Shown in pieces: positions 43,305 through 46,174 of a stretch of DNA of 57,111 bases; position 1 is the first letter of the stretch; the number at the start of each line of letters is the position of its first letter. The translations under genes were made by a program, and so were the position numbers. The stretch is taken from contig JAGCFB010000070.1 in assembly GCA_017650345.1 (NCBI GenBank), forward strand, positions 1-57,111. Reading direction: 5' to 3'. This DNA comes from Kiritimatiellia bacterium (GTDB taxonomy: Bacteria; Verrucomicrobiota; Kiritimatiellia; RFP12; UBA1067). Below the pieces are notes generated by a model. The model was not told the DNA's origin. It made no database searches and saw nothing but the letters and a program-made list of their open reading frames with translations.

Positions 43305-46174
43305 CGGACATCAGGATAGTCAACGCGAAGGTCCACAACCTTCGCGGGATCGACGTGACGATTCCGCGCAATTCGCTCACCGTCGTCACGGGGCTCTCCG
43401 GCAGCGGCAAGTCGTCGCTCGCGTTCGACACGCTCTACGCCGAGGGCCAGCGCCGCTACGTCGAGTCGCTTTCCGCCTACGCGCGCCAGTTCCTGGACAG
43501 GATGGAGAAGCCGGACGTCGAGCGCATCGAGGGGCTTTCGCCCGCGATCTCCATCGAGCAGCACACGACGAGCGGGAATCCGCGCTCGATCGTCGCGACC
43601 GTCACGGAGATACACGACTACCTCAGGATCCTCTACGGCTCCGCCGCCGTGCCGCACTGTCCGAAGTGCGGACGCGAGGTCCAGCGGCAGTCCGCCGAGC
43701 AGATCGTCGATGCGATACTGGCGTCCGCCAGGCAGCAGTCCCGCATCATCATCTACGCGCCGGCGGTGAAGGGAAAGAAGGGCCGGCACGAGTCGCTCTT
43801 CGAGGAGATGAAGCGCAAGGGCTTCGCGCGCGTCAGGATCGACGGAGCGACGCATACGCTAGAGGAGCTGCCGGAGCTGGACAAGAAGAAGGCGCACAGC
43901 ATCGACGTCGTCATAGACCGGCTCGTCGTCCCCTGCGACCGCACGCGCCTCACCGATTCCGTCGAGCTCGCCCTCAAGGTCGGCGGCGGAATCCTCGAGG
44001 TCGAGTGGCTCGCCTCCGGCGGAGAGTCCGCCCAGCCCCAATCGACCACCTACTCCGAGCTGAACGCATGCACCCGCTGCGGCGTCTCGTTCGACGAGCT
44101 GAAGCCGCGCAGCTTCTCGTTCAACTCGCCCTTCGGCGCGTGTCCGACCTGCGCCGGACTCGGACAGCTCTACTACTTCGACGAGGATCTCGTCGTGCCG
44201 GACAGGACGCTTCCGCTGGAAGAGGCGATCCATCCCTGGCGGCGCATGGGGCAGATGAACATCCTCTACCACAAGGAGCTCCTCTCCATCATCGCTAAGC
44301 AGTACGGCGTCTCGCTTTCAACGCCGTACGAGAAGCTTCCCGCGAAGTTCCGCCACGGACTCATGCACGGCTTCAAGGACGACCTCGTCCTTCCATGGCG
44401 CCGCGTGGACCGTCCGTTCGAGGGCGTCCTCGCCTCGCTCCAGCGCAGACTCGACGAGGCGGAGGACGACGAGATGCGCGCGAAGTTCGAGGCGTACCAG
44501 AGCTTCCGCACCTGCCCCGACTGCGGCGGCGCGCGCCTGAAGCCGGAGTCGCGCGCGGCGACCGTGGCCGGCAGGACGATCACCGAGGTGATGTCCATGC
44601 CCGTCACCGAGGCGCTGCGCTTCTTCGAGGATCTCCAGCGTCCGCCGGACACCGCCTCCGCGGCGACGCCCTCCGCCGCCTTCGCCGGACTCGGCGACGT
44701 CCTCCGCGAGATCACGCGCCGGCTCAAGTTCCTGATCGACGTCGGACTCGACTACCTCACGCTGGACCGCGCCTCCTCGACGCTCTCCGGCGGCGAGATG
44801 CAGCGCATCCGCCTAGCGACGCAGATCGGGTCCGGGCTCACCGGCGTCCTGTACGTCCTGGACGAGCCGACGATCGGACTCCATCCGCGCGACAACGAGC
44901 GCCTCATCAGGACGCTCAAGGAGCTGCGCGACCGCGGCAACACGGTCGTCGTCGTCGAGCATGACGAGGAGATGATGCGCGCGGCGGACTGGATCGTCGA
45001 TCTCGGACCCGGCGCCGGACGCGAGGGCGGCGTCGTCATGTACCAGGGCGACTTCAAGGGACTGCTCAAGGCGAAGTCGCTCACCGCCGACTACCTGACG
45101 GGGCGCAAGCGAATCGAGAATGACATGAGACATCAGACGAGAGACGAGGAGGATCTCGCGTCTCGCGCCTCGCGTCTCGCGCCCAAGCCGGCAACCCGCT
45201 TCCTGACGATCTCCGGCTGCTGCGAGCACAACCTGAAGAACATCACGGCGCGCTTCCCTGTGGGCGCGTTCACGGTTGTGACGGGAGTGTCCGGCTCCGG
45301 AAAATCGACGCTAATCGACGAGACGCTCAAGCGCGCGCTGATGCAGAGGTTCTACGGATCGAAGGCGCGTCCCGGGAAGTACAGGAAGCTCTCTGGCGCG
45401 GACTTCTTCGACAAGGTGATCGAGATAGACCAGTCGCCGATCGGACGCACCCCACGCTCGAACCCGGCTACGTACGTCGGCTTCTTCTCTGAGATTCGCG
45501 AGCTCTTCGCGATGACGGAGGCCGCCAAGGCGCGCGGCTACACGGCGGGACGCTTCTCGTTCAACGTGAAGGGCGGACGGTGCGAGGTCTGCGGCGGAGA
45601 CGGGCTCAAGAAGCTCGAGATGAGCTTCCTCCCCGACGTGTACGTGACGTGCGAGCAGTGCGGCGGAAAGCGCTTCAACGCGGAGACGCTCGAGGTGACG
45701 TACGGCGGAAAGACGATCGCGGACGTCCTGGAGATGACCGTCGCGGAGGCGTGCTCGTTCTTCGCGAAGGTCCCCTCGCTCGCGCGCAAGCTGAACCTGC
45801 TCGCCGACGTCGGACTCGGCTACGTCGCCCTCGGACAGAGCGCGACCACGCTCTCCGGCGGCGAGGCGCAGCGCATCAAGCTCGCAACGGAGCTTTCGCG
45901 CCGCTCAACCGGGCGCACGCTCTACCTCCTCGACGAGCCTACGACCGGACTCCACTTCGACGACGTCGCAAAGCTGATGCGGATCCTGCTGAAGCTCCGC
46001 GACCAGGGCAACACCATCATCGTGATCGAGCACAACACGGACGTCATGCGCTGCGCCGACTGGATCGTCGATCTCGGCCCAGGCGGAGGCGACGCAGGCG
46101 GCAACCTCGTCGCCGAGGGTCCGCTCGAGTCCGTCCGCGCCTCCCGCGAATCCGTGACCGCCCCGTTCCTGTAA
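43301..46174 (+). CDS. uvrA: Excinuclease ABC subunit A
   Basis: [62 protein letters not shown], a second Walker [15 protein letters not shown], and [12 protein letters not shown]. The product is 957 aa. The start is ATGA-coupled to the upstream stop. Confidence 0.95.
45127..45183 (-). repeat. Inverted copy of the GCGAGAC-repeat palindromic element, in frame inside the uvrA inter-domain linker
   Basis: GAGACATCAGACGAGAGACGAGGAGGATCTCGCGTCTCGCGCCTCGCGTCTCGCGCC matches the reverse complement of 27006-27058. It encodes ...[18 protein letters not shown]..., making the linker between RKRIEND and FLTISGC about 15 residues longer than the E. coli UvrA linker as I recall it. Confidence 0.8.

Follow-up and report, generated by a model that had tools for sequence, protein, structure and literature searches.

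A heptamer-armed palindromic repeat in frame in the UvrA linker of a Kiritimatiellia bacterium

Introduction

In-frame palindromic repeats in bacterial genes, including repetitive extragenic palindromes (REPs) within uvrA, are already known. Here we describe a palindrome with arms of tandem heptamers that sits in frame in uvrA of a rumen Kiritimatiellia bacterium, on a stretch of 57,111 nt (contig JAGCFB010000070.1 of assembly GCA_017650345.1; the whole stretch is called the window below, and coordinates without a prefix refer to it), together with its sister copy in the spacer between ackA and pta and the repeats that fill the same protein linker in related genomes.

REPs inside genes were catalogued in 2013 by Di Nocera, De Gregorio and Rocco, who found them in excess in replication and excision-repair genes, with many cases in recombination repair genes as well (PMC3733652). 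Published examples lie in uvrA of Thioalkalivibrio, in both uvrA genes of Opitutus terrae, where the insert of Oter_2709 occupies residues 638-644, and in tRNA synthetases; flexible linkers and loops were proposed as their sites, and mutator effects were considered possible (PMC3733652). Rickettsia palindromic elements (RPEs; Ogata et al. 2000, as reviewed) are palindromic repeats lying in frame in unrelated housekeeping genes, without a stop in the frame that is read, for which no transposase is known and whose peptides are thought to be surface-located and compatible with protein function (PMC10969869, PMC3184786). MITEs, miniature transposable elements with inverted repeats, can also fuse in frame with host open reading frames (ORFs) (PMC10969869). 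Heptameric repeats, finally, include GGGAATC of Xanthomonas, GGGGAYT of Nostoc and the cyanobacterial short tandemly repeated repetitive (STRR) type (PMC4692102), as well as TAACTGA of Beggiatoaceae (PMC4679880). A literature search returned no paper on such repeats in Kiritimatiellae.

We consider it probable that the uvrA segment is a REP- or RPE-like dispersed, non-autonomous palindromic repeat that lies in frame and is tolerated in a disordered UvrA linker that serves as a recurrent hot spot. What goes beyond the literature is that this one linker and four other UvrA loops are recurrently refilled, clade-wide, by genome-specific families of heptamer hairpins, with recombinational exchange of alleles.

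Results

The uvrA element and its intergenic sister copy

The features on which the comparison rests are the following.

43301-46174, plus strand: uvrA, 957 aa, host gene of the insert (ORF list and translation; PDB sequence matches to UvrA at E~1e-105)
45121-45186, minus strand (antisense to uvrA): intragenic heptamer-arm palindromic element, 66 nt or 22 codons, with the hairpin proper at 45122-45183 (family alignments, covariance model, blastn, Tandem Repeats Finder)
45122-45148, plus strand: first arm of the uvrA copy, GACATGAGACATCAGACGAGAGACGAG, equivalent to the family's CGTCTC-type arm (RNAalifold consensus projected onto the coordinates)
45157-45183, plus strand: second arm of the same copy, CGCGTCTCGCGCCTCGCGTCTCGCGCC, built of tandem heptamers and complementary to 27006-27038 at 94% (repeat search, Tandem Repeats Finder, RNAalifold)
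27003-27066, plus strand: intergenic sister copy, hairpin 27006-27063 with loop 27033-27036 (fold, covariance model at 78.6 bits, palindrome search)
25865-26995, plus strand: ackA (acetate kinase), upstream neighbour of the sister copy (Pfam PF00871, E=2.4e-134)
27082-28119, plus strand: pta (phosphate acetyltransferase), downstream neighbour, used as length control (homologues carry PF01515 and that name)

A first-pass annotation, made from the sequence alone, had placed the same palindromic element at 27006-27058 and, in frame, in uvrA, and the comparisons bear this out. The uvrA segment is the reverse complement of 27006-27058, with a 33-nt arm matching at 94% in the repeat search, and blastn of the uvrA copy against the window yields a 57-nt alignment (E=1.3e-11) that is 86% identical and has a single 4-nt indel, in the loop. 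The covariance model R1, built from eight family copies, scores 83.5 bits at 45114-45186 on the minus strand and 78.6 bits at 27003-27071 on the plus strand, against 15.2 bits for the next best hit in the window. Across 457 kb of clade DNA, it gives family copies 47-85 bits on their better strand and 33-62 bits on the opposite one, everything else staying at or below 24 bits. The copies in uvrA, in the ackA-pta spacer and in other Kiritimatiellae genomes are homologous. The span of the uvrA copy, annotated as 57 nt, was correctly located and proved slightly wider, with the hairpin at 45122-45183 and the termini at 45121-45186.

Members of the family measure ~62-66 nt and have arms of three to four tandem heptamers, (GAGACGC)n facing an imperfect complement (CGTCTCN)n whose units read CGTCTCT, CGTCTGG or CGTCTCC. 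The consensus hairpin obtained with RNAalifold comprises 22 pairs over ~62 nt, in four blocks of 5-7 bp split by single mismatches and with G-C rich stem ends. The family termini are TTGG(A/G)C...G(T/C)CCAA-like, individual copies ending in ...CGTCCAA, TGTCCAA, TGCCCAA, CGTCCAG or TGTCA. In the uvrA copy, the loop spans 45149-45156. Tandem Repeats Finder reports period-7 arrays at 27008-27063 and 45154-45181, the only ones in the window above ~2 copies. Every copy scores higher on the strand on which the GAGACGC arm comes first (for the uvrA copy, 83.5 bits on the minus against 51 bits on the plus strand), and the element therefore has polarity.

The intergenic copy, which starts 10 nt past the ackA stop and ends 16 nt short of the pta start, lies 18 kb from the one in uvrA. 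It is a near-perfect hairpin (-39.3/-41.7 kcal/mol, z -4.7/-4.3), and 27011-27058 is the window's only strong Watson-Crick palindrome. The uvrA copy has decayed relative to it: its fold reaches -32 kcal/mol (z -1.65) on the antisense strand and, because G:U pairs turn into C.A mismatches, no more than -23.5 kcal/mol (z -0.1) on that of the mRNA, which is no better than shuffled sequences. Rfam covariance models found no match at E<=1 in 44900-45400 or 26800-27300. A role as intrinsic terminator was considered and rejected, there being no T tract 3' of either copy and the terminator scan being empty at 27006-27063.

Neither the intergenic copy nor the family consensus contains a stop codon in any of the six frames, and given such a consensus any insertion of length 3n stays open. 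The insert in uvrA was indeed, as first annotated, a multiple of three and without a stop: its 66 nt make 22 codons in frame, and the gene is open.

Position of the insert in the UvrA protein

The 957-aa product is 100% identical to MBO7483170.1, named excinuclease ABC subunit UvrA. It was introduced as essential, which is not so in the strict sense, since uvrA is not strictly essential in E. coli. Positions 45128-45181 encode an 18-residue stretch between the first and the second ABC module, within a block that DNA alignments to relatives show to be exchangeable as a whole.

45110-45199, plus strand: linker block that is open to replacement, codons R604-R633 (the window aligned at the DNA level with the contigs L203, encoding the UvrA protein P0001, and L225, encoding P0126)

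Compared with the solved structures 9gxk, 3ux8 and 6n9l, the window linker has a surplus of 14-16 residues, close to the ~15 of the first-pass annotation, and alignment to 9gxk (RKKIEVPKE----------------RRKPNGKWLEIIG) opens its gap exactly there. Measured by regular expression, the linker is 32 aa long in the window, 20-70 aa in the clade and 15-18 aa in 14 UvrA loci of other phyla; the same extra residues did not appear in UvrA of unrelated lineages. Loci searches with UvrA segments returned matches dominated by universal motifs and recovered ~10 clade loci. In the AlphaFold model (mean predicted local distance difference test score, pLDDT, of 64, i.e. moderate), residues 604-630 have pLDDT below 50 between confident blocks and nearly no secondary structure, apart from one 3-residue helical turn at 608-610. 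The model is consistent with a flexible surface linker, as had been surmised, although the low score is in itself a weak sign of disorder because hypervariable segments get low confidence anyway.

The identical UvrA protein is present on two further European Nucleotide Archive (ENA) contigs, and two more assemblies, one of them from the Joint Genome Institute (JGI), have the window linker apart from a single R-to-H exchange. With the linker recurring in further contigs and assemblies, an assembly artefact is unlikely.

The same family in other genes and genomes

A pattern over the inner stems led to two rumen Kiritimatiellae metagenome-assembled genomes in the genome collection. RGIG4421 carries the element in frame in leuS (peptide ...GHETVDERRESSSRLASHVSR..., ~30 aa more than LeuRS of T. 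thermophilus, 1h3n) and RGIG5952 in frame in gltB (peptide ...DARHGTRDGTSRLAPGV...). Among metagenome contigs, L214, L217 and L219 contain it in frame in an unnamed protein, L217 with an in-frame 24-nt deletion at the hairpin centre and flanks ~97% identical; in L216 and L220, it is in frame in another unnamed protein, adjoining a second heptamer array. GAGACGC-family peptides also occur in LeuRS of four lineages (P0249, P0252, P0270, P0293). The contig L221, which encodes the UvrA protein P0043 (80% aa identity), has the family in the same linker as the window, in opposite polarity and between different flanks, and so represents a second, independent occupation of this linker by the family. 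In the wider clade, with its different repeat families, sister copies were found near or inside uvrA in L222 and L224, and none in the short flanks around uvrA of L121, L122, L203, L205, L206 and L223.

Judging by the look of its sequence, the protein of L216 and L220 may be a fusion of major facilitator superfamily (MFS) and acyltransferase parts. In L216 (~2580-2700), an array encoding PNTQPKH directly follows the GAGACGC element in the same ORF, so that one inter-domain linker has two different repeat families next to each other. On L209, the family forms three long arrays in seemingly non-coding DNA; the ORF across two of them reads as non-coding junk, and the L209 copies were therefore not counted as intragenic. 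These three hairpin arrays lie within 2 kb (L209:1-4300) and are made of a 30-nt unit of four heptamers, in up to 7 units, plus an inverted arm. An ORF beside them may, by the look of its sequence, encode a four-helix-bundle (23S intervening-sequence type) protein fused to a topoisomerase-type zinc finger.

The heptamer pattern GCGAGACGCGAGRCGCGAGACGCGA was discarded as a family probe: it found (GCGAGAC)n in many phyla and no Kiritimatiellae among the 80 loci listed. Such (GCGAGAC)n arrays (L001-L120) can run to dozens of units, occupy several places in a genome and come from Acidobacteriota, Planctomycetota, Gemmatimonadota, Chloroflexota (Viridilinea), Actinomycetota and Proteobacteria; they often adjoin arrays of a different heptamer and are for the most part one-armed tandem repeats rather than hairpins.

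Turnover and patch exchange in the UvrA linker

Among the 120 nearest UvrA relatives, which are 67-90% identical and, where a name is given, all from Kiritimatiellae, length ranges from 927 to 1055 aa, and nearly invariant flanks surround a hypervariable linker. Many of these linkers look like translated repeats or palindromes, for instance EPRTTNH x8, TGNGKQE x3, SNSQTLKP x3 or TADGRRPTV...SVDGCRMS. Strong linker hairpins (-34 to -86 kcal/mol) are encoded in L121, L122/L244, L203, L206, L221, L222, L223, L224 and L239, most of them with arms of tandem heptamers, and hairpin-less linkers are limited to short ones (L124 and L205, the latter encoding P0004). As a hot spot, the UvrA linker has been filled repeatedly, in different lineages by different families of hairpins or heptamers.

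The closest lineage, P0001 (L203, 90% aa identity), illustrates the replacement. Its DNA and that of the window line up base for base as far as the G-R-K codons and once more starting at F-L-x-I-S-G; between these conserved flanks, P0001 has unrelated DNA that is itself a hairpin of -45 kcal/mol. P0126 (L225) is, outside the linker, 92.5% identical to P0001 and 87.5% to the window, and across the linker it matches the window almost perfectly.

45096-45216, plus strand: patch common to the window and the divergent allele P0126, 121 nt, a putative recombination tract (1 difference, at 45165)

Differences between window and P0126 over this region are confined to 45095, 45165 and 45217; 123-nt windows elsewhere in the gene differ at a median of 13 positions (5th percentile 8). 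The patch is the least divergent stretch of uvrA in this comparison, with ~12% divergence elsewhere, and near identity within otherwise diverged genes indicates that the linker allele moved between lineages as a short recombination patch. Linker alleles are thus replaced and exchanged between lineages as short patches, and P0001 and P0126 form the nearest thing to a presence/absence polymorphism. The earlier claim that the element is or was mobile agrees with the occurrence of the family in leuS, gltB, two other genes and the L221 linker; since a recombination patch of ~121 nt seems to be the vehicle of the insert in this lineage, the data do not demonstrate transposition into precisely this position of the present genome.

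Unit numbers vary at orthologous linkers (144 nt in L239, 210 nt in L244). Changes in array length are multiples of three inside genes and take other increments outside (16 nt between L227 and L228). The short linker of P0107 (GRKRIEGSASRAPQSAPRRFLTISG) has KRIE...ASRA...RF in common with that of the window at the peptide level and may, to judge from these residues, be a remnant of the window element after loss of one arm. One contig labelled Limosilactobacillus gorillae (L236, CAVJWR010000050.1) encodes a Kiritimatiellae-type UvrA, 67% identical to a 93-aa clade-consensus linker-flank query, and is probably bin contamination.

The ackA-pta spacer is likewise occupied by other repeats. In the closest relatives it holds a different heptamer array, (GAGTTAR)n, of varying copy number (80 nt in L227, at 9921-10000, against 64-66 nt in L228-L230). 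The L227-type spacer also contains a small hairpin, GTGGGGAAACCCAC, and the AckA stop codon lies inside the array.

Variable loops of UvrA and LeuRS, and the Pta control

A MAFFT alignment of 121 UvrA sequences resolves five variable regions, at window residues 140-147, 211-213, 232-249, 443-459 and 604-634, with lengths of 4-39, 2-20, 11-104, 4-65 and 15-78 aa, respectively, all repeat-filled in relatives. Three of them are mapped as follows from this alignment.

43718-43741, plus strand: UvrA variable loop R1, aa 140-147; 4-39 aa in relatives, no visible repeat in the window
43994-44047, plus strand: UvrA variable loop R3, aa 232-249; 11-104 aa in relatives
44627-44677, plus strand: UvrA variable loop R4, aa 443-459; 4-65 aa in relatives

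Different loops of one and the same UvrA have 4-mers in common in 39 of the 121 proteins, compared with 16.1 +/- 3.3 (maximum 24) when loops were permuted across proteins; P0003, for example, has NPNTQTP in four of its loops. LeuRS has a single variable loop, from 17 aa (empty-like) to 59 aa, filled by families that match those of UvrA, among them the GAGACGC family in the four lineages named above. With the same families recurring across loops and sites of a genome, each genome appears to have its own dominant repeats at common permissive sites. Pta, in turn, measures 344-350 aa in all 120 relatives (87-93% identity) and has no repeat-filled loop. Contrary to the first-pass annotation, such insertions are hence not rare, affecting five UvrA loops and one LeuRS loop in the clade, and REPs in uvrA had already been published (PMC3733652).

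Two contigs show repeats at several places around uvrA. In L224 (P0025), three copies of a REP-like hairpin, GGTAGGGGCGCGTCTCCGACGCGACC..., lie inside one uvrA (10710-10766, 11390-11422 and 11858-11983) and encode ...GRVGDASLP/...RLGEPSLP. In L222 (P0071), (CACGAAC)n occurs thrice in 7 kb (10455-10499, 5760-5786 and 11936-12151). It occupies loop R1 and the linker of UvrA, the latter with ~22 units that encode EPRTTNH x8, as well as the spacer between coaE and rho. Frame shifts driven by slippage are to be suspected in the linker array, a strong candidate for such events.

Discussion

How does this element relate to the systems described before? REPs resemble it in being short and G+C-rich; they lie mostly between genes, just 3' of ORFs, with a subset wholly inside ORFs that adds ~7-30 residues; Opitutus terrae and the Kiritimatiellae moreover both belong to the Planctomycetes-Verrucomicrobia-Chlamydiae (PVC) superphylum. 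REPs have an unpaired GTAG or CGTC (TGTC/CCTC) tetranucleotide as tag at one end and a short CCA-like tail at the other. One end of the window element has CGTC/TGTC followed by CA(A); GTAG is absent, and CGTC also recurs every 7 nt in the stem, where it is paired. A REP is made up of a single stem of 8-9 bp that opens with A-T pairs and a 4-5-nt loop, 20-40 bp in all, compared with 22 pairs in four blocks over 62 nt here, and the window element fails the structural definition of GTAG/CGTC REPs. REPs are also high in copy number and mostly intergenic, near ORF 3' ends; the window has two copies in 57 kb, one of them 10 nt past the ackA stop. PMC3733652 does not describe different families succeeding each other at one orthologous site throughout a clade.

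In common with RPEs, the element inserts in frame into conserved proteins (uvrA, leuS, gltB and two other ORFs), with UvrA and LeuRS longer than their solved counterparts. RPEs (RPE-1 to RPE-10), by their description, are set apart from it by a length of ~105-150 bp, restriction to Rickettsia, a conserved peptide per family and the lack of a heptamer period (PMC3184786). Heptameric simple sequence repeats (SSRs) and STRR-type repeats share with it 7-nt units, usually ~4 per array, a dispersed distribution, a genome-specific unit and variability between relatives, and some of their arrays form inverted pairs able to fold into stem-loops; they are described, however, as intergenic direct repeats, not as in-frame parts of proteins or as a defined hairpin with conserved termini. 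MITE-like features are the small size, the non-autonomous and dispersed nature and the inverted ends. MITEs, by contrast, have terminal inverted repeats around an unrelated core, a target-site duplication and a parent insertion sequence, whereas the window element is one whole hairpin with neither a target-site duplication nor a parent insertion sequence seen, and its TTGGnC...GnCCAA inverted termini are merely the base of that hairpin, which does not make it a MITE.

Several results weigh against a dispersed repeat that arrived in this linker by insertion. A target-site duplication was absent from the seven contexts compared, and no transposase or REP-associated tyrosine transposase (RAYT) was recognised among the 10 window ORFs scanned against Pfam, the remaining ORFs matching syntenic housekeeping genes of relatives. 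The window, one contig of the source genome, holds only two family copies in its 57 kb. Looking for an empty site in close relatives, as the first-pass annotation had proposed, gave no clean one in the uvrA linker, where relatives have other hairpins or short remnants and the closest lineage unrelated DNA, and none in the ackA-pta spacer of the closest relatives. Without the 66 nt, the window linker would fall ~6 aa below the canonical length, which argues against an intact ancestral linker having simply received the element. In at least one lineage, the 121-nt patch points to arrival by homologous recombination, not transposition. Finally, only 1 of the 22 pairs in the RNAalifold consensus shows a double (compensatory) change, so that selection on the hairpin itself is not demonstrated.

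If the segment is nonetheless a dispersed repeat, as we think probable, the GAGACGC family would spread as a unit with conserved TTGGnC...GnCCAA ends, either via a hairpin- or single-stranded-DNA-dependent process of the REP/RAYT or MITE type or through ectopic conversion between copies, during which palindromes could pair in either orientation. Slippage or hairpin deletion may then alter element length. For UvrA, the insert would be neutral or nearly so, selection purging only variants that are out of frame or contain a stop, and copies might survive only where the protein tolerates disorder and length and frame fit. REPs are known targets for further insertions (PMC3184786), and an occupied linker would probably draw the next insertion or conversion, keeping the loop permanently filled.

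Could the repeats instead have a selected function at the linker? Translational pausing, transcript control or a 7-nt phase-variation switch that turns nucleotide-excision repair off and creates a transient mutator come to mind. Nearly all 120 relatives have some repeat or hairpin in the UvrA linker, heptamer copy number differs between close relatives, and, seven not being a multiple of three, long arrays such as the ~22 units of L222 should slip often. Di Nocera et al. likewise argued against chance as the reason why repair genes are hit, and saw mutators as a possible outcome of the insertions (PMC3733652). Yet linker sequences are unrelated between lineages, and the same families in four other UvrA loops, the LeuRS loop, gltB and other genes speak for tolerance rather than a role of the site. 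Hairpin-less short linkers exist (P0004, L124), and in the window the sense-strand fold does not exceed that of shuffles (-23.5 kcal/mol, z -0.1) and the array has just 4 units. No frame-shifted allele was seen, though the protein databases used would hide such alleles. With unrelated proteins behaving alike, a weak mRNA fold and linkers that do without a hairpin, we regard a selected function as unlikely.

Ectopic gene conversion alone might also account for the data, an older linker hairpin having been overwritten from the ackA-pta copy, or the reverse, with neither transposition nor mobile-element machinery. Because palindromic repeats pair in either orientation, conversion would homogenise families within a genome, and one family is indeed found at several sites of the same genome, with other families in other genomes. 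Both window sites bear other repeats in close relatives, patch-wise allele exchange is observed, and neither a transposase (10 ORFs, Pfam) nor a target-site duplication was found. This scheme, however, needs an earlier repeat at each site and leaves the first arrivals in leuS, with its empty-like loops of 17 aa, and in gltB unexplained; moreover, the termini are conserved across unrelated contexts, as for a unit that moves whole. On balance, it strikes us as decidedly improbable. Very improbable is a local origin by in-place heptamer slippage and snap-back (template-switch) synthesis, with the likeness to 27006-27058 as convergence: although many unrelated phyla commonly have (GCGAGAC)n arrays, bacteria contain more heptameric repeats than expected, a surplus for which slippage is a possible cause (PMC4692102), and arms do expand and contract, the two window copies match at E=1.3e-11 in blastn and have irregular, non-periodic detail in common (CGTCTCTCGTCTG..GTCTC, the loop-proximal ATCC, and termini that recur in other genomes), the covariance model parts family copies (47-85 bits) from the rest of the 457 kb of clade DNA (<=24 bits), and the arrays of other phyla are mostly one-armed instead of hairpins.

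Under the preferred reading, that of a tolerated dispersed repeat, the locus is a clean and well-supported case of selfish palindromic DNA surviving inside a conserved gene. It bears on the question raised in 2013, whether it is by chance that REPs land in excision-repair genes (PMC3733652). Hundreds of natural uvrA alleles of one clade are available from public metagenomes, with five refilled loops in UvrA and an untouched Pta control, so that gain, loss, replacement and frame constraints become directly measurable. In practical terms, protein length is unreliable as an orthology cue in this clade (UvrA 927-1055 aa), and the loops are best masked in alignment-based trees, though they make good strain markers.

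More tentatively, previously undescribed hairpin repeats with heptamer arms might be at work throughout rumen and gut Kiritimatiellae, with one dominant unit per genome (GAGACGC, CACGAAC, GATTGAAGA-type or ACGGGAA-type) that repeatedly colonises, overwrites and resizes the same surface loops (five in UvrA, one in LeuRS, GltB sites and others), so that essential and repair proteins of the clade carry fast-evolving, genome-specific disordered segments; we see this as possible rather than likely. Concordance of families within a genome would imply active, sequence-directed spreading or homogenising, be it by a hairpin-specific enzyme or by bidirectional palindrome gene conversion. In-frame heptamer arrays are potential frame-shift switches, the long ones could make uvrA phase-variable, i.e. 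a switchable mutator, and, if confirmed, repeat invasion would be linked to mutator phenotypes.

Other features of the window

Around the host gene, a tRNA-Leu(UAA) at 46206-46294 starts 32 nt 3' of the uvrA stop. Upstream, 39207-43304 encodes a 1365-aa protein of Flg_new (Listeria-Bacteroides type) repeats with a DNA periodicity of 237/537 nt, whose stop shares 4 nt with the uvrA start; its counterparts in relatives encode 852 to 1365 aa or are missing between rho and uvrA.

At the contig edge (1-285), a CRISPR-like array has five copies of ~CTTTCCCCACGCGAGTGGGGATGTTCC with a 61-nt period and I-E-like spacing. No cas genes were recognised beside it, the ORFs 579-2057 and 2097-3545 being without a Pfam match. 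A 124-nt direct repeat, 98% identical (1177-1300 and 1873-1996, 696 nt apart), lies inside the unannotated ORF 579-2060. Two giant ORFs are present at 4929-10466 (1845 aa) and 13609-25785 (4058 aa), the latter being of Laminin_G_3 type in relatives and containing many TSP3-like DxDxDG repeats. In-frame low-complexity arrays of the (GAGCCG)n type, acidic and proline-rich, occur at 33950-34110 in a secretin-like ORF and at 56471-56651 in the last, open-ended ORF.

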